Assembly (NCBI GenBank): GCA_003558985.1
Contig: PWNJ01000038.1
Location: 4,990 to 68,989 of the forward strand
DNA length: 64,000 nucleotides
Direction of reading: 5' to 3'
DNA from: a candidate division CSSED10-310 bacterium
Lineage (GTDB): Bacteria; CSSED10-310
Part shown: piece after piece, positions 50,117 through 59,673 of the stretch
Layout: each line of letters opens with the position of its first letter
Numbering within the stretch: the first letter of the stretch is position 1
Notes under the pieces: generated by a model
Told to the model about the DNA's origin: nothing
What the model saw: the letters and a program-made list of their open reading frames with translations, nothing else
The model's database searches: none
Made by a program: the position numbers and the translations under genes

Positions 50117-50165
50117 TTGACAAAAATAAAAAAACAGGATAAAATTGTATGTGTTTGGTGGAGGG
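50117..50165 (+). promoter_or_regulatory. Strong sigma70-type promoter (TTGACA-17 nt-TAAAAT) and RBS in front of the T3SS gene set
   Basis: TTGACA at 50117-50122, TAAAAT at 50140-50145, and GGTGGAGGG at 50157-50165 before ATG 50174. The region is embedded in about 180 bp of A-rich DNA. Confidence 0.6.
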
Positions 50166-50173
50166 ATTGCCTG

Positions 50174-50869
50174 ATGAATTTCGGTGAACATATTCAAAGT
50201 GAATTTATAAACCAGTTTTCAAATCTTTTACACACGTATGAAAACGCAAATATAAATGCCAATCATAAGGAATGCCAGAGGATTCGTGAGTTCACAGTTA
50301 AAACTTTGAAAATGATAGATGCATATCCTTTCTATGTAATCGAAAACATACACCCGGAATGGATTAGACAAAAACTGGAGAGTTTCAATAACTGCTGCAG
50401 GTCAAAGTTATTAAAAAGCATTGCGGAGTATGACAGCGTTAAAGTTCGCAATATAGTTAAGTCATTTCAATTTAAAACAACTGGAACTTGCATCCGTAAT
50501 TGTTGCCACAATAGCACTTTGACCAAACTTATAGATGGATGGCCGATCATGACAAGTCGAACACGGTTTTCAAACAGTTCATGGAAACAATTGCCGTTTA
50601 TGAAATGGGAACGCATTGAATATCTTGTTCAGTGTCTGAAGAAAAAGTATCCGGGCACTTCGCTAGCAGAATTGTATTACTGCGAATGGAATCAAATGAG
50701 ACAATCAGACAAAAATACAGCTCTGATATGGCTTGAACATAAGTTGATGCCTGATCAAGGTCGGCTTTTTGTCGAACAGATTAAAAGCATGCCACACATA
50801 AAAAATCGTACGAACAATTATTGTGATTCGATTCTTCAAAAAGTGATGGTAGGAGGATTCAAAAAATGA
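50174..50869 (+). CDS. Hypothetical protein, first gene of the T3SS operon (position compatible with SctK)
   Basis: 231 aa, Cys-containing, no family recognisable by eye. Gene order only. Confidence 0.3.
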   Translation: MNFGEHIQSEFINQFSNLLHTYENANINANHKECQRIREFTVKTLKMIDAYPFYVIENIHPEWIRQKLESFNNCCRSKLLKSIAEYDSVKVRNIVKSFQFKTTGTCIRNCCHNSTLTKLIDGWPIMTSRTRFSNSSWKQLPFMKWERIEYLVQCLKKKYPGTSLAELYYCEWNQMRQSDKNTALIWLEHKLMPDQGRLFVEQIKSMPHIKNRTNNYCDSILQKVMVGGFKK

Positions 50870-51480
50870 TTAATGCAGAACCAAGAATTATACTTAAAGA
50901 ATCCAGAGATGCACACAACAAGGCTGACAAGATTATTGATTCAGCTAAATCTGAAGCGCATTCAATAATCAAAAACGCTTTGGATGAAGCGGATAAAATT
51001 ACTGAAAATGCACATATCCAGGGTGTTAAATCAGCCAAGAAGGAGGCTCTTAAACATATTGTTATGGCAAATAATCATCGGCGAAATACAGAACAGGCTG
51101 TCTTGCCTGAGTTAGTTAACTTGTGCATGGATACGGTGTACTTATTTTTATCGCAGTATCAGAAAAGTCATAAAGATTGGATTGTTCTACGAGTGAAAAA
51201 AGGTTTGGAGTATTTACAGGATCAAAGAACGGTAAAAGTACTTTTGAATCCTGATGATTTATCATCACAGGTTGACAAGCTGGAGATGATTTCCAAAACG
51301 ACAGTTTTGAATGGTTCAGTAAAACTTGTTGCGGATAACAGAATCAGTAAAGGTGATTGTCTGTTTGAATCGCCGGAGGGTTCCATAAACGCGACTTTAA
51401 AAGACAGCATTGATTCGATTCGTTCAATTTTGCTTAAAAGTAAAACCAGCTTTGATACGGAAGGAGATATTTATGAGTAA
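50866..51480 (+). CDS. sctL: FliH/SctL-like stator protein of the T3SS ATPase
   Basis: N-terminal Ala/Glu/Lys helical region and a C-terminal FliH-like block (VKVLLNPDD...VADNRISKGDCLFESPEGSINATL). Confidence 0.45.
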   Translation: MINAEPRIILKESRDAHNKADKIIDSAKSEAHSIIKNALDEADKITENAHIQGVKSAKKEALKHIVMANNHRRNTEQAVLPELVNLCMDTVYLFLSQYQKSHKDWIVLRVKKGLEYLQDQRTVKVLLNPDDLSSQVDKLEMISKTTVLNGSVKLVADNRISKGDCLFESPEGSINATLKDSIDSIRSILLKSKTSFDTEGDIYE

Positions 51481-51790
51481 CAATTATATTAATTCAATTC
51501 AAACGATCAGTAATCAGTCTGGATCGGAACAGAGTCTTGCCAGCGCAGCATTACAAAAACCGGATGTGCCTGAATTTCCAATACTGGAGGACATACTTAA
51601 TACAGGAAATGCAACTTCTGTTATTCGGGAAATCAAGTCTTTGTGCTGTCTTCTGGATAATTGTCCGGTAAAACATCATGACCTTGAAACGGTTAATAGA
51701 ATTTGGTCTGCCAGGGAGGGGTTAAAAGAAACAGCAAAACTGTTTGAAAAACTCCAGGAATTGGACAACAAAAGAAAACATATCGCATGA
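51473..51790 (+). CDS. Small T3SS-associated protein (position of the YscE-like needle co-chaperone)
   Basis: 105 aa. Overlaps the upstream gene (ATG 51473 vs stop 51480). Gene order E-F-G as in the Ysc/Psc family. Confidence 0.25.
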   Translation: MSNNYINSIQTISNQSGSEQSLASAALQKPDVPEFPILEDILNTGNATSVIREIKSLCCLLDNCPVKHHDLETVNRIWSAREGLKETAKLFEKLQELDNKRKHIA

Positions 51791-51803
51791 AAGGCTGGAT
51801 AAC

Positions 51804-52148
51804 ATGATCTATATTCAAGGTACAAACAACAATCTGACACCAATGGTCAACTCGAAACCCGAACCGAATGAAGGAAAATTCTCCAGAATTTTAAATGGTC
51901 TGGGACGCTTCGTTGGCGCTACCGGAAGAGCTGCGGCGCACTTGATACCAGGCGCTTCTGTAATATGCGAGTTTTTCAGTCTTTGTGGATTGGGAGACAG
52001 TTCGCCGAATTTCGGTGGAATGATGCCGAATGACATGCTGGGAATTCAGCAGGAAATGCTGCAGGAAGCAAGAATGTATACGTTGATATCCAATATTATG
52101 CGACTTCGGCATGATGCAGCTATGAGTGCGATAAGAAATATAAAGTAG
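51804..52148 (+). CDS. Putative needle/inner-rod family subunit (SctF/SctI-like)
   Basis: 114 aa. The C-terminus ...RLRHDAAMSAIRNIK resembles the conserved needle-family C-terminal K/R-D-x5-I-x-N motif. It is followed by a TPR chaperone-like gene. Confidence 0.3.
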   Translation: MIYIQGTNNNLTPMVNSKPEPNEGKFSRILNGLGRFVGATGRAAAHLIPGASVICEFFSLCGLGDSSPNFGGMMPNDMLGIQQEMLQEARMYTLISNIMRLRHDAAMSAIRNIK

Positions 52149-57654: not shown

Positions 57655-57667
57655 AGGGAAAAAGAAT

Positions 57668-57973
57668 ATGTATTTGGAAGGCATTAGAATATTCACTTTG
57701 CTGTTGGGTATCATATCAGCAGCGTTTGCAGGTTTTAAAATATGCAGCAAATATGACATCATGCATAAACTTGATAAACAAAAATCGGTTTTTGAGATCA
57801 TTCAAAAAAAGAGAATTTCGGCAAAAGCTGAAATTGTTTGTATAAAATTCAAAGACAAGGAAGCTTTGCTAGGCGTTTCTGGTGAACGTATCACTCTCAT
57901 TATGCAAACTGAAAACGATGTAGAACAATCCTCGTCCAATGAAGAATGCATCCAGGAGACACATCATGGCTGA
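57668..57973 (+). CDS. Small single-pass membrane protein, FliO-like position between sctQ and sctR
   Basis: 102 aa with an N-terminal TM (IRIFTLLLGIISAAFAGFKI). RBS GAAGGGAAAAAG. Its stop overlaps the sctR start. Confidence 0.35.
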   Translation: MYLEGIRIFTLLLGIISAAFAGFKICSKYDIMHKLDKQKSVFEIIQKKRISAKAEIVCIKFKDKEALLGVSGERITLIMQTENDVEQSSSNEECIQETHHG

Positions 57974-58634
57974 GACATCTGTGATAAATAATCCTGGAAT
58001 CATGATAGTTTTGTTTGCAGTTTTGTCACTAATGCCTTTTCTAATTGTGACAACAACCTCATTTGTAAAACTGTCTGCAGTCATCTCAATCCTGCGCTCT
58101 GCTCTTGGCACACCGCAAATACCCCCCAACATTGTTGTGACTGGTCTTGCTCTGGTTTTAACCATGATGGTTATGATGCCGGTATTATCTGATATTCTAT
58201 ACTGTCTGGATGAAAACGATATAAATTTGCAAACCATATCAGAATCTGACGATATTACTCACATGCTTGAAACGGCAATTCAGTGTATTACACCTTCATT
58301 GAAAAAGTTTTTAACACATCATACGCATGAATCAGAACTGGATATGATTCACAGTATTGCAGAGAAACTGTCAAATGATGAATACTATGAAGATCATTTA
58401 ATACTAATGATTGCGGCATTTTTAATCAGTGAGCTGAAGGAAGCGTTTTACATTGGCTTTTTGATATTTCTGCCATTTATTGTTATTGACTTGGTCGTCG
58501 CAAACATTTTGCAAGCATTGGGAATGGTCATGATGTCACCGACTACCATTTCGTTACCGTTTAAATTGTTGCTGTTTGTTTTGGCAGATGGGTGGAGTCT
58601 GATTATTGAAGGTTTGTTAAAAAGCTATTTGTAA
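57966..58634 (+). CDS. sctR: T3SS export apparatus protein SctR (FliP/YscR family)
   Basis: FVKLSAVISILRSALGTPQIPPNIVVTGLALVLTMMVMMPV closely matches the YscR/FliP core. Confidence 0.85.
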   Translation: MAETSVINNPGIMIVLFAVLSLMPFLIVTTTSFVKLSAVISILRSALGTPQIPPNIVVTGLALVLTMMVMMPVLSDILYCLDENDINLQTISESDDITHMLETAIQCITPSLKKFLTHHTHESELDMIHSIAEKLSNDEYYEDHLILMIAAFLISELKEAFYIGFLIFLPFIVIDLVVANILQALGMVMMSPTTISLPFKLLLFVLADGWSLIIEGLLKSYL

Positions 58635-58654
58635 GAGATATGTGAGGAAGAAGT

Positions 58655-58921
58655 ATGGAAGATATTGTAGTGACCTATTTTCGGGAGGCAATTGTCATCA
58701 TCTGTTATGCTTCTGTGCCAGCGCTTCTGACTGCATTGATTATTGGTTTCGGTGTCAGCTTTCTTCAAGCGGCGACTCAAATTCAGGAACAAACGCTTTC
58801 ATACGTTCCTAAAATAATGGCTGTATTTCTTATACTGATGTTGACATTTTCATGGATGATGCAGTTGTTTGTTGGGTTTACAGAAAAAATCCTGAAAAAT
58901 TTTTATGTACTAATTGGGTGA
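58655..58921 (+). CDS. sctS: T3SS export apparatus protein SctS (FliQ/YscS family)
   Basis: 88 aa with two TM helices and the conserved LQAATQIQEQTLSYVPK motif. Confidence 0.85.
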   Translation: MEDIVVTYFREAIVIICYASVPALLTALIIGFGVSFLQAATQIQEQTLSYVPKIMAVFLILMLTFSWMMQLFVGFTEKILKNFYVLIG

Positions 58922-59673
58922 TGATGATTAGCAATTCATTTTATCAATGCTATCTTCTGGTTTTGGCGCGAGTGATACCCCTCACTGTCATATCCCCTGC
59001 TCTGGGAGCCAGATTAATACCTGTGAAATCCAGATTACTTGTGGCCGTTTCGCTGTCATTTGTCGTTACAACAACTGTCGAATCCAGGTCATTCCACCTG
59101 AATCTTCAAAGTGTAATTATGCAGATAATTATGGGTATCTTCATGGCCTTGTTTACAGCTATCCCATTTTATGCATTGCAATCTGTGGGTGAATGGATTG
59201 ATATCAATCGGGGAGAAACACTTTCAGCAATTATTGTACCTCAACTGGAATCCAGAACATCTCCACTTGGACGACTGTATTTGTTACTCGCAATAATCTT
59301 GTTCTTCATTAGCAATAGCCATTTCGTGCTGGTTGAACAGATTGCCGCAAGCTTTAAGGTGGCACCTTTGTATTCGTCAGATTTGGATTTACTTCTAAAA
59401 ACAGATATACAGACATTGCTTGATTTAATAAAAACACAGATTAAAGAATTGTTTGTGATCGTTATAAAACTGGGTTTACCTATAGTGTTCATTCTATGGA
59501 TTTCAGATTTGGTACTCGGACTTTTAAATCGAATTGCTCCTTCTTTACAGGTATTCTTTATTGGATTACCAATAAAAATGTGGATTGGGTTAGCTTTGGC
59601 AGGACTCTCAATCGGTTTTGCAATTGATGAAATAACTGAATATATTACACATGCGATTTCCAGCTTTGCTTGA
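58921..59673 (+). CDS. sctT: T3SS export apparatus protein SctT (FliR/YscT family)
   Basis: Polytopic, 250 aa. Its start is TGATG-overlapped with sctS. Family-typical N-terminus ([17 protein letters not shown]). Confidence 0.7.

Follow-up and report, generated by a model that had tools for sequence, protein, structure and literature searches.

The 64 kb stretch of DNA analysed here (the window) carries a series of genes related to type III secretion, and raises the question of which machine these genes encode. The sole genome description of CSSED10-310 reports "the majority of flagellum ... genes" (PMC8248873). Such genes were thus assigned to flagella, and the presence of a non-flagellar system in this lineage, as claimed in the preliminary description, is indeed noteworthy. 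Our analysis indicates that the region is probably a single operon encoding the greater part of a non-flagellar type III secretion machine (T3SS), in a version private to CSSED10-310, a little-known phylum of uncultured sediment bacteria. Known from the genes of MAGs, this machine is putative in its completeness and its function.

Extent and conservation of the operon

The operon comprises 15 co-directional genes (positions 50174-59673 of the window, forward strand, as for all features below) with intergenic gaps of -35 to +27 bp. These genes form one tightly packed operon behind a promoter-like site. Sixteen genes had been announced, where 15 are counted, and position 50117 is not a coding start but the first T of the -35 element. 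The first gene starts at the ATG in 50174, preceded by GGAGGG, and the same start is given for an almost identical public contig whose genes were called independently. The promoter block (50102-50145) is composed of the element TAAATGTAAAA (50102-50112) abutting the -35 sequence TTGACA (50117-50122), a spacer of 17 bp and the -10 sequence TAAAAT (50140-50145). The site 50117-50145 (TTGACA-17-TAAAAT) scores 11/12 and is the top sigma-70 match across 14 kb. The block is also found 57-70 bp 5' of the first gene in the related loci L001, L002 (12/12), L004 and L017. It is conserved in five of the six species, although the intergenic DNA around it has diverged, and is a putative promoter. The small gaps and the conservation of the sigma-70-like site in the orthologous loci of other species bear out the proposal of a single promoter-driven operon. 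Moreover, chance cannot account for at least nine T3SS families following one another in operon order, and the observation is therefore real.

All the relatives that carry the operon are MAGs of the candidate phylum CSSED10-310. Gene order and flanks are identical in L001, L002/L003, L004, L006-L012 and L017. The operon is bordered by ksgA-bacA-sir2-tldD-pmbA on the 5' side and by clpX-pilB-pilT-pilC on the 3' side, and these housekeeping neighbours are conserved with the operon and its promoter block down to 48% SctN identity (species range 48-58%). Identities to the window proteins extend from about 24-30% (SctK position) and 25-31% (SctQ) to 47-65% (SctS), with 64-76% for ClpX. The checked ORFs are all intact in five translated loci, and most of the genes are also found by tblastn in further loci. 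Such conservation of order, promoter and neighbours across distant species indicates that the operon is old and vertically inherited in CSSED10-310, and that it does not originate from a mobile island.

Ring, ATPase complex and export gate

The gene sctJ (53014-53802) encodes an inner-membrane ring lipoprotein of 262 aa (PF01514, YscJ_FliF, E 3.9e-21) with the lipobox VTGC and a C-terminal transmembrane helix. This protein obtains 133.6 bits with the SctJ model TIGR02544 against 34 with FliF, and its PDB matches are MxiJ, PrgK and EscJ. The ATPase sctN (53786-55135) is recognized by PF00006 (ATP-synt_ab) and PF18269 (T3SS_ATPase_C) with an E-value of 6e-86. It scores 517.6 bits on the SctN model and 493 bits on FliI clade 2, the only cut-off passed being that of the FliI/YscN subfamily; in the comparison with the PDB, FliI is outscored by the injectisome ATPases. 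The FliH/YscL-type stator sctL (50866-51480; PF02108, E 6.6e-12) reaches 68 and 53 bits with the HrpE/YscL models versus at most 34 bits with the FliH models, all of these scores being below cut-off. Directly 3' of sctN, sctO (55132-55605) encodes a FliJ/YscO-like coiled-coil stalk. The window protein (157 aa) has no significant match in Pfam or NCBIfam, and the assignment comes from its orthologues, three of which match FliJ (best E 2.3e-4) and one the YscO-like family (E 4.3e-7).

The export gate is represented by three subunits. The FliP-family subunit sctR (57939-58634, alternative start 57966; PF00813, E 5e-62) passes the yscR cut-off (211.7 bits for 208.6) versus 188 bits with fliP, and among its PDB matches the score of SpaP equals or exceeds that of FliP. 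The FliQ-family gene sctS (58655-58921; PF01313, Bac_export_3, E 1.3e-25) passes the fliQ cut-off (89.8 bits for 88.9) and fails that of SctS (71.8 bits for 76.5). Finally sctT (58921-59673; FliR family, PF01311, Bac_export_1, E 3.8e-48), whose start overlaps the sctS stop by one base, obtains 135.6 bits with fliR and 116 bits with SctT, neither reaching the cut-off. Upstream of sctR, a fliO-like gene (57668-57973; PF04347, E 1.2e-5; TIGR03500, E 1.1e-5) encodes a single-pass protein with a conserved N-terminal transmembrane helix. In the examined relatives this gene is located at the same place (in L001 it is not called as a gene), and its product is probably an assembly chaperone for SctR. 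FliO homologues are known from some non-flagellar T3SS operons (PMC12403147).

The assignments of SctL, SctJ, SctN, SctO, SctR, SctS, SctT and the TPR chaperone given in the preliminary description are thus confirmed by profile searches, that of SctO through its orthologues. The label "Ysc-like" is justified for gene order and not for sequence: the NCBIfam injectisome equivalog cut-offs are missed by SctN, SctJ, SctL, SctQ, SctS and SctT, and a neighbour-joining tree places the SctN clade on a long branch of its own, outside both the injectisome and the flagellar ATPases that were sampled. In this tree, a sister position to the injectisome ATPases is not separated from one to the flagellar ATPases.

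The KEGG-based annotation of these MAGs implied that these genes could be a part or a remnant of a flagellar export apparatus (fliH, fliI, fliJ, fliN, fliO, fliP, fliQ, fliR). The behaviour of SctS and SctT towards the FliQ and FliR models, the presence of a FliO-like gene, the order N-O-P-Q-FliO-R-S-T that mirrors fliI-fliJ-fliK...fliN-fliO-fliP-fliQ-fliR, and the flagellum genes reported in the only CSSED10-310 genome paper all point in this direction. However, the ring protein is of SctJ type, and SctL, SctR, SctQ, SctN and SctJ all score higher on injectisome than on flagellar models. The operon further encodes proteins of the needle/rod family and a TPR chaperone of T3SS type, and in place of separate fliM and fliN genes it has an sctQ built with an internal start, as in injectisomes. 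The scan of the window included the complete set of large non-overlapping ORFs but not all ORFs of at least 110 aa. These scanned ORFs contain no genes for rod, hook, filament, FliG, FliM, FliE, FlgB, FlgC or Mot, in agreement with the absence of flagellar structural genes noted previously, and there are no FliG, FliM, FliE, FlgB, FlgC, hook, filament or Mot genes in any related locus. The flagellar reading is already disfavoured and we consider it highly improbable. The classification as a non-flagellar set is upheld by the short SctJ lipoprotein in place of FliF, the lack of FliG and FliM, the needle/rod-family proteins with the TPR chaperone, and the ATPase accompanied by SctL and SctO.

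The SctQ fusion, the small proteins and the missing parts

The protein encoded by sctQ (56143-57654, 503 aa), the cytoplasmic pod/C-ring component, had been described as a SpoA-domain SctQ. The SpoA assignment holds, but this is not a plain SctQ since an FHA domain (E 1.7e-16) is fused to FliMN_C (E 2.2e-15) in the same protein. The order of the domains is N-terminal helices, FHA (residues 84-156, bases 56392-56610), middle domain, SpoA1 and SpoA2 (residues 442-502, bases 57466-57648). The FHA domain is canonical and retains the phospho-threonine-binding residues; canonical FHA domains require Arg and Ser, which are missing from the cytoplasmic domains of SctD (bioRxiv 10.1101/2020.09.22.308627). 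An internal start (M413, ATG 57379-57381) with the Shine-Dalgarno sequence AAGGA (57366-57370) is invariant among the orthologues. Translation from this start would yield a SctQ-C of 91 aa (SpoA2) that associates with the full-length FHA-SctQ, as is the case for YscQ, SpaO and SsaQ. The FHA domain would most likely tether the SctQ pods to the membrane rings or to the gate in a phosphorylation-dependent manner, which would place assembly or activity under the control of a Ser/Thr kinase; no such kinase was found in the window.

Three genes are named here by their position. The SctK-position gene (50174-50869), directly 5' of sctL with an overlap of 4 bp, encodes a soluble protein of 231 aa without transmembrane segment and without match in Pfam and NCBIfam; its orthologues share 15-24% identity, and its AlphaFold model (pLDDT 43) is too low for use. 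The YscE/CdsE-position gene (51473-51790, 105 aa) may encode a needle co-chaperone, and one orthologue matches T3SS_needle_E at an E-value of 0.13. The SctP/FliK-position gene (55607-56134, 175 aa) may encode a length ruler or substrate switch; none of its five orthologues has a family match, and tblastn from the window sequence recovers none of them. For the K, YscE-like and P assignments tentatively made before, we therefore retain the gene order and find no sequence support.

Between the YscE-position gene and the TPR gene, the SctF-position candidate (51804-52148, 114 aa) displays a very strongly conserved C-terminal helix (...GGMxPxEMLGIQQEMLQEARVYTLLSNIMRLRHDAAMNAIRNIK), a mean column identity of 59% and 32 invariant columns in five species. 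The SctI-like protein (52613-53011, 132 aa), encoded directly 5' of sctJ, matches PF17001 (E 1.7e-3), PF09392 (E 0.033) and the SctI model NF038054 (E 0.014), and has the conserved C-terminus ...AVSKxVESxVxxxKTxxQTQV. With hhalign, the two proteins match each other at E 8.8e-5; against a reference set of needle proteins, the SctI-like protein gives E 1.6e-4 (probability 50%) and the SctF-position protein a weak E 0.049. These values weakly suggest that both belong to the needle/rod family. The TPR chaperone (52176-52616, 146 aa; TPR_19, E 2.8e-19) is YscG/CdsG-like or LcrH/SycD-like, with 36 bits for LcrH_SycD, 35 for CdsG and 28 for SctY, all far under the cut-offs. Its identity is 57-61% in four of the five aligned relatives and 27% in the most distant one (L006).

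Genes for sctU, sctV, sctD, sctC, gatekeeper, tip, translocators or effectors were detected neither among the scanned ORFs of the window, nor in the relatives up to 10 kb from the operon, nor in 16 kb downstream in JAFGEQ. Because the essential genes sctU, sctV, sctD and sctC (secretin) are not in the set, the system is only a candidate injectisome. None of the examined loci has a complete core set, and one may think of a decaying, non-functional relic left after the loss of these four genes. Yet the intact ORFs, the order, start-stop overlaps, promoter block and internal SctQ start maintained down to the most divergent species, and the invariant columns of the needle-like C-terminus argue for purifying selection, and a relic is hardly credible.

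A second explanation is a secretin-less or periplasmic system similar to the "needleless" T3SS* of Myxococcus xanthus, serving bacterial contact or predation instead of injection into eukaryotes, possibly with the adjacent type IV pilus machinery. A FliO-like gene is likewise present in Myxococcota T3SS (PMC12403147), none of the examined genomes has a secretin or SctD at the locus or close to it, and the hosts are free-living in anoxic sediment (PMC8248873), a protein identical to the SctK-position protein being also present in a soda-lake MAG. In addition, pilB-pilT-pilC-pilS-pilR lies 3' of the operon in every relative, and the documented cooperation of T3SS* with the Kil Tad pilus (PMC10433427, PMC12075869) offers a model for such a pairing. 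On the other hand, the operon differs from T3SS* in having kept a needle-family gene under strong conservation, with neighbours of YscE/YscG type and a gene in the ruler position, and also in the lack of SctD, SctU and SctV from the cluster. The pil set, which clpX separates from the T3SS genes, resembles a usual T4aP cluster. Its proximity may thus be fortuitous, and secretin and SctD may sit elsewhere in the genome. We regard this explanation as unlikely.

In the non-flagellar machine that we favour, SctRST, aided in assembly by the FliO-like protein, would nucleate the gate inside the SctJ ring, and SctL, SctN and SctO would dock below it via the SctQ pods. The exported substrates would be the SctI-like rod protein and the SctF-like needle subunit, the latter being retained until export by the TPR chaperone together with the product of the YscE-position gene. 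The genes for SctU and SctV would have to lie at other genomic sites, as they do in Chlamydiae; those for SctD and the secretin would be at other sites or absent.

Comparison with known systems

In the Ysc/Psc injectisomes of Yersinia and Pseudomonas, the local gene order is E-F-G, I-J, K-L and N-O-P-Q-R-S-T, the needle gene stands between those of a small protein and of a TPR-like chaperone, and SctQ has an internal translation start. The CSSED10-310 operon has these features in common, but the K-L block precedes E-F-G, and the locus lacks sctU after sctT as well as sctV, sctC, sctD, sctW, sctX, sctY, the tip protein and the translocators. It also differs by the FHA-SctQ fusion, the FliO-like gene, the separate SctN lineage and the failure to reach nearly all the NCBIfam equivalog cut-offs.

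The Cds genes of Chlamydiales are arranged in a run E-F-G...N-O-P-Q and a run J...L-R-S-T, both shared with the CSSED10-310 operon. The TPR protein matches the CdsG family, and PVC-type SctN proteins are among the top matches outside the clade (about 50% identity). The chlamydial apparatus genes are also spread over several loci, with sctU and sctV apart from sctR-S-T, a scattering described by Abby and Rocha (PMC3459982). In contrast, the CSSED10-310 system possesses a FliO-like gene and one operon at a housekeeping locus, carries FHA on SctQ and not on SctD, and is hosted by free-living anaerobes whereas Chlamydiales are obligate intracellular. Its SctN clade is not nested in the PVC group in the neighbour-joining tree.

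With flagellar export (FliH/I/J, FliN, FliO/P/Q/R), the operon shares a homologous core in the same order (ATPase, stalk, ruler, C-ring, FliO, P, Q, R), the retention of FliO, and the best scores of SctS and SctT on the FliQ and FliR models. It differs by the SctJ lipoprotein ring, the needle/rod-family subunits and the TPR chaperone, and by the lack of FliF, FliG, FliM, rod, hook, filament and stator genes at the locus.

The T3SS* of Myxococcus xanthus (Myxo family of Abby and Rocha) has in common with CSSED10-310 a FliO homologue in a non-flagellar operon (PMC12403147), a free-living host and a cluster without secretin. Its cluster includes SctD, SctU and SctV and is missing the needle protein (PMC10433427); CSSED10-310 shows the reverse, with needle-family genes in the locus and D, U and V out of it. 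The link with type IV filaments is functional in Myxococcus and only positional in CSSED10-310. Similarly to Myxococcus (PMC3459982), the CSSED10-310 system may be an early offshoot of the line leading from the flagellum to the injectisome.

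Gene content and promoter of the operon

The operon is composed of 15 genes, all on the + strand at 50174-59673, with intergenic gaps ranging from -35 to +27 bp. Shine-Dalgarno sequences precede most of these genes and several are joined by ATGA or TGATG start-stop overlaps. The first gene begins at the ATG 50174, with the motif GGAGGG ahead of it, and a public contig nearly identical to this DNA has the same start in its own, independent gene call. Position 50117, where the set had been thought to begin, is not a coding start; it corresponds to the -35 hexamer of a promoter-like site, TTGACA-17 bp-TAAAAT, which with 11/12 matches is the top sigma-70-type match within the surrounding 14 kb. 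This match alone proves little, because this AT-rich DNA shows no enrichment in promoter-like hexamers over shuffled sequence (52 found versus 43 expected). In four other species the block TAAATGTAAAAnnATTTGACA-N17-TAnAAT lies 57-70 bp 5' of the orthologue of the first gene, once as a perfect 12/12 match, and the remaining intergenic DNA of these species has diverged around it. From this phylogenetic footprint, the operon promoter at 50117-50145 is likely to be real. The single promoter-driven operon proposed in the preliminary description is thus retained, on the basis of the 15 tightly packed genes and of a promoter block conserved across five species. A conserved TAAATGTAAAA-like element (50102-50112) directly abuts the -35 hexamer and occupies the same place in four of the related loci detected in public contigs (L001, L002, L004 and L017; five species in all). 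Its role could be that of an UP element or of an activator site.

Firm family assignments on the + strand were obtained for SctL (50866-51480; PF02108, E 6.6e-12), a TPR chaperone (52176-52616; TPR_19, E 2.8e-19), SctJ (53014-53802; PF01514, E 3.9e-21), SctN (53786-55135; PF00006 plus PF18269, E 6e-86), SctQ (56143-57654; FHA, E 1.7e-16, plus FliMN_C, E 2.2e-15), a FliO-like protein (57668-57973; PF04347 and TIGR03500, each about 1e-5), SctR (57939-58634; PF00813, E 5e-62), SctS (58655-58921; PF01313, E 1.3e-25) and SctT (58921-59673; PF01311, E 3.8e-48). The matches of SctQ, SctR, SctS and SctT to FliMN_C, FliP, Bac_export_3 and Bac_export_1, respectively, are all over the Pfam gathering scores. 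The TPR protein also displays weak matches to the CdsG and LcrH/SycD models. The 157 aa protein encoded 3' of sctN has itself no significant match in Pfam or NCBIfam; its orthologues match FliJ and YscO-like families (best E 4.3e-7), and it is assigned as SctO. In the related locus L002, the public gene call fuses the region 14935-15970 into a 325 aa "SctT" and omits sctS, while tblastn finds an intact sctS at about 14946 with 65% identity. The missing sctS of L002 appears to reflect an error of annotation, not the loss of the gene.

The gene content of the operon is non-flagellar, as the preliminary description had correctly recognised. [quoted passage not shown] Neither the FliF MS ring, the FliG/FliM switch nor axial rod and hook proteins were found in the scanned ORFs of the window or at related loci. 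The genes for FliG, FliM, FliE, FlgB, FlgC and MotAB are absent from the scanned ORFs of the 64 kb window and from every related locus; the announced lack of flagellar rod, hook or filament genes holds for the same ORFs and extends to the related loci. SctJ represents the short ring lipoprotein as opposed to the long FliF: it has 262 aa, a lipobox VTGC and a C-terminal transmembrane helix, it scores 133.6 bits with TIGR02544 versus 34 for fliF (the equivalog cut-off of 162 is not reached), and its nearest PDB relatives are MxiJ, PrgK and EscJ. The only genome description of the phylum read these genes as flagellar and suggests motility genes in its genomes (PMC8248873). The supplements of the Zodletone paper contain no flagellar or T3SS tables for the phylum.

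The profile scores are mixed. SctJ, SctL, SctR, SctQ and SctN lean towards the injectisome models, and SctS and SctT towards the flagellar ones. Curated cut-offs are passed only by SctR (yscR), by SctS (fliQ) and with the generic FliI/YscN model, and the injectisome equivalog cut-offs are not reached by SctN, SctJ, SctL, SctQ, SctS or SctT. SctN passes a single cut-off, that of the FliI/YscN subfamily model (510 versus 379.5); it obtains 517.6 with the SctN model (cut-off 604.75, not reached) versus 493 with FliI clade 2, and injectisome ATPases outscore FliI in a PDB search. A neighbour-joining tree built from the 119 best SctN/FliI hits places the CSSED10-310 proteins on a long branch of their own that falls outside the flagellar, PVC and proteobacterial groups sampled; this crude tree has no resolution for the deep placement of the branch. 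Because of the mixed profile scores and of the separate SctN branch, the qualifier "Ysc-like" of the preliminary description fits the local gene order only.

Needle- and rod-type proteins and components absent from the locus

The 132 aa protein encoded just 5' of sctJ, at the SctI position, displays weak SctI/needle signals (PF17001, 1.7e-3; PF09392, 0.033). Its profile aligned to needle proteins gives an hhalign E of 1.6e-4, a value obtained with a manually entered reference set and taken as a lead only. The 114 aa protein (51804-52148) at the SctF position has no match in the databases searched. Its C-terminal 45 residues are nearly invariant in five species, the SctI-like protein is its paralogue (E 8.8e-5), and its similarity to the C-terminal helix of PrgI-type needles, again with a manually entered reference set, is gapless but weak (E 0.049). 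The 114 aa gene is flanked by the 105 aa gene and the TPR gene, and these three genes reproduce the arrangements YscE-YscF-YscG and CdsE-CdsF-CdsG. The search of the PDB sequences with alignment profiles of the needle-like, SctI-like and TPR proteins recovered nothing specific. The K, YscE-like and P assignments formerly given to the 231, 105 and 175 aa proteins are designations of position: Pfam and NCBIfam provide no sequence support for them. A structure model of the 231 aa protein computed from a two-sequence alignment was unusable (pLDDT 43).

Several core components are absent from the locus. SctU and SctV were searched as Bac_export_2 and FHIPEP matches without result in the scanned ORFs of the window, and are also absent from the precomputed Pfam annotation for genes lying up to 10 kb from the operon in six related loci. 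The secretin SctC and SctD were detected neither in the scanned ORFs of the window nor within 10 kb of the operon in relatives. In the contig JAFGEQ of one relative, the 16 kb past sctT contain pilC, pilS, pilR and metabolic genes only, and none of SctU, SctV, SctD and SctC. Gatekeeper, tip, translocators and effectors are likewise absent from the window, from the 10 kb around the operon in relatives and from the 16 kb downstream in JAFGEQ. Two ORFs were considered as SctD or SctV and rejected: that of 454 aa (30429-31793) encodes a polytopic membrane protein with no family match, and that of 701 aa (37997-40102) a soluble protein with no Pfam or NCBIfam match. The latter follows a 120 aa GspG-like pseudopilin whose N-terminus resembles that of a lipoprotein (pair at 37625-40102); metabolic genes lie on both sides of the two, and nadA is downstream. 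There is a precedent for parts encoded elsewhere in the Chlamydiae, where the T3SS is spread over several loci (PMC3459982). For parts that are truly lacking, the precedent is the T3SS* of Myxococcus, which is devoid of secretin and needle and acts with a Tad pilus in prey killing (PMC10433427, PMC12075869).

FHA domain and predicted internal start of SctQ

The preliminary description had reported a SpoA-domain SctQ; the SpoA domains are present, and a fusion to an FHA domain had been missed. SctQ has 503 aa and contains, besides its C-terminal SpoA domain, a Pfam FHA domain at residues 84-156 (E 1.7e-16). In the AlphaFold model (pLDDT 72), helices at the N-terminus are followed by an FHA sandwich, an alpha/beta domain in the middle and a pair of SpoA domains, and Foldseek with the C-terminal half retrieves a FliM(SpoA)::FliN fusion (E 8e-9). 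The canonical FHA residues are found in SctQ as Gly-Arg in the beta3-beta4 loop, Ser-x-x-His in beta4-beta5 and Asn-Gly in beta6-beta7, and all are invariant or nearly so among ten members of the FHA-SctQ family. By its residues, this domain is of the canonical, putatively phosphothreonine-binding type. A structural study of PscD indicates that the cytoplasmic domains of SctD lack exactly this Arg and this Ser, and that SctK is bound without phosphate (bioRxiv 10.1101/2020.09.22.308627). The N-terminus of SctQ is the only FHA or Yop-YscD_cpl signal in the stretches searched. That the protein might be a disguised SctD was ruled out, since no transmembrane segment is predicted in SctQ.

When 1.84 billion representative proteins were searched exhaustively with HMMER, only about ten full-length FHA-SctQ relatives (about ten clusters) were recovered, all of 500-518 aa, and all the other matches were to the FHA domain alone; the fusion is therefore rare. 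The word-indexed homologue search recovered only one relative of FHA-SctQ and one of the K-position protein, because both evolve fast.

An ATG inside sctQ (M413; site including the Shine-Dalgarno sequence at 57366-57381) is invariant and located 5' of the last SpoA domain. In 6/6 orthologues a Shine-Dalgarno sequence stands 6-9 nt upstream of this ATG, which sits in an otherwise unconserved linker of low pLDDT. The fragments predicted from this start measure 91-103 aa over the orthologues (91 aa in the window). This conserved combination is the signature of an internally translated SctQ-C, here a predicted product. Internally translated SctQ-C is known for YscQ, SpaO and SsaQ, and flagella possess a separate fliN gene in place of the internal start.

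Inheritance in CSSED10-310 and comparison with known systems

Among the closest relatives of SctN, at 51-72% identity, are proteins bearing the name "candidate division CSSED10-310 bacterium". An identical K-position protein is present in GCA_003565615.1 (PXBE01), and the exact protein matches only on two 3 kb contigs. The same 15-gene order was found in nine related loci (L001, L002, L004, L006, L007, L010-L012 and L017); L003, L008 and L009, which duplicate the stretches of L002, L001 and L004, respectively, were not counted. Common to the nine loci are the neighbours ksgA, bacA, sir2, tldD, pmbA and an endonuclease gene on the 5' side, and clpX, pilB, pilT, pilC, pilS and pilR on the 3' side. 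Gene order and neighbours are kept even when the identity of SctN is only 48%. A search with the needle motif through 185,579 species-representative genomes recovered six species only, represented by JAFGEQ, JAFGMN, JBASEY, CAYOJK, CALFER and CAYYMM. A genome-scan match in L013 (a proteobacterium) was false: it covers 28 residues, and the locus contains none of the other genes of the operon. In a metagenome scan, at least one short contig matched the same motif. The GC content of the operon is 0-6 points under that of its flanks: 37.4% against 43.3% in the remainder of the window, and nearly the same as the flanks in L004 and L006. Horizontal transfer of the operon as a pathogenicity island is ruled out by this small difference and by the conserved synteny of the flanking housekeeping genes. 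The conserved order and flanks, the restricted distribution and the GC content indicate an old, vertically inherited and lineage-restricted system under purifying selection.

Several observations concern the surroundings. The gene clpX (59730-62898 with its surroundings, no adjoining clpP) lies 56 bp 3' of sctT. It was set aside as an operon member: from the ATG 59730 it matches the ClpX equivalog end to end (617 bits), the gap is of 55-85 bp in relatives, and the TTG at 59670 is probably not its start. After clpX, the genes pilB (MshEN domain), pilT, pilC, pilS and pilR follow in every relative (L001, L002, L006, L017 and L018), so that T3SS and type IV pilus genes adjoin with a conserved adjacency. 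A divergent gene of 264-279 aa on the - strand, with no Pfam match, is present in L001 (5383-6186), L002 (5467-6261), L004 (5539-6357), L006 (4575-5414) and L017 (3384-4217). The window does not contain it, and an endonuclease gene (49516-49986) directly faces the operon. L005 (JAFGDC010000609, 3294-11055), from another order of CSSED10-310, carries a rearranged variant of the T3SS operon. Upstream of it an MshEN-domain protein is encoded, a sigma-70-family gene (7093-7821) separates the needle-like genes from sctI/sctJ, and the contig breaks off after sctO. Elsewhere in the window (3486-18536), a family 2 glycosyltransferase gene adjoins four genes encoding membrane proteins of very large size (987, 789, 2012 and 982 aa). 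NHL-repeat beta-propellers are combined with PMT_2 glycosyltransferase-like regions in three of these proteins, one of which also has DUF2298; the 789 aa protein has DUF2298 only.

A conserved, vertically inherited non-flagellar T3SS is thereby placed in an uncultured, free-living, anaerobic sediment phylum. It combines injectisome traits (the SctJ lipoprotein, needle/rod proteins with a TPR chaperone, the SctQ internal start) with flagellum-like ones (FliO, FliQ/FliR-like gate subunits), and by its own SctN branch offers useful material for reconstructing the origin of the injectisome from flagella. By homology, the operon would supply the gate core, the SctJ ring, the ATPase complex and the pods, as well as the subunits of rod and needle and their chaperones, and SctU and SctV would be encoded elsewhere in the genome. 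The FHA domain may serve in a phospho-dependent tethering or regulation of the pods, a hypothesis suggested by the conserved binding residues and by the FHA-like domain of SctD at the interface of basal body and sorting platform. The FHA-SctQ fusion points to a testable connection of Ser/Thr phosphorylation with the docking of the sorting platform, and prompts the question whether SctD can be dispensed with. Should the missing parts be encoded elsewhere in ordinary form, the system is simply one more lineage-specific T3SS family. We regard as rather improbable a bolder reading, an early-diverging and independent flagellum-to-injectisome branch without SctD, in which SctQ would carry a phosphothreonine-reading FHA domain and the platform would dock on a phosphorylated membrane component under Ser/Thr-kinase control, perhaps with no dedicated secretin and perhaps acting on other microbes with the neighbouring type IV pilus. 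If true, it would represent a third way to couple the cytoplasmic ring to the basal body, beside FliF-FliG-FliM/N and SctD-SctK-SctQ.

With the Ysc family only the gene order is shared, and the operon is not a member of this family. Nor does it correspond to the "Myxo" family: needle-family genes are present and SctD, SctU and SctV are absent from the locus, the reverse of the Myxococcales T3SS*, whose cluster has SctD, SctU and SctV and lacks needle and secretin (PMC10433427). Common to both are FliO and the absence of a secretin from the locus. A FliO homologue in non-flagellar operons has been reported for Myxococcota and some Pseudomonadota (PMC12403147), and its presence inside such an operon is not unique to CSSED10-310.
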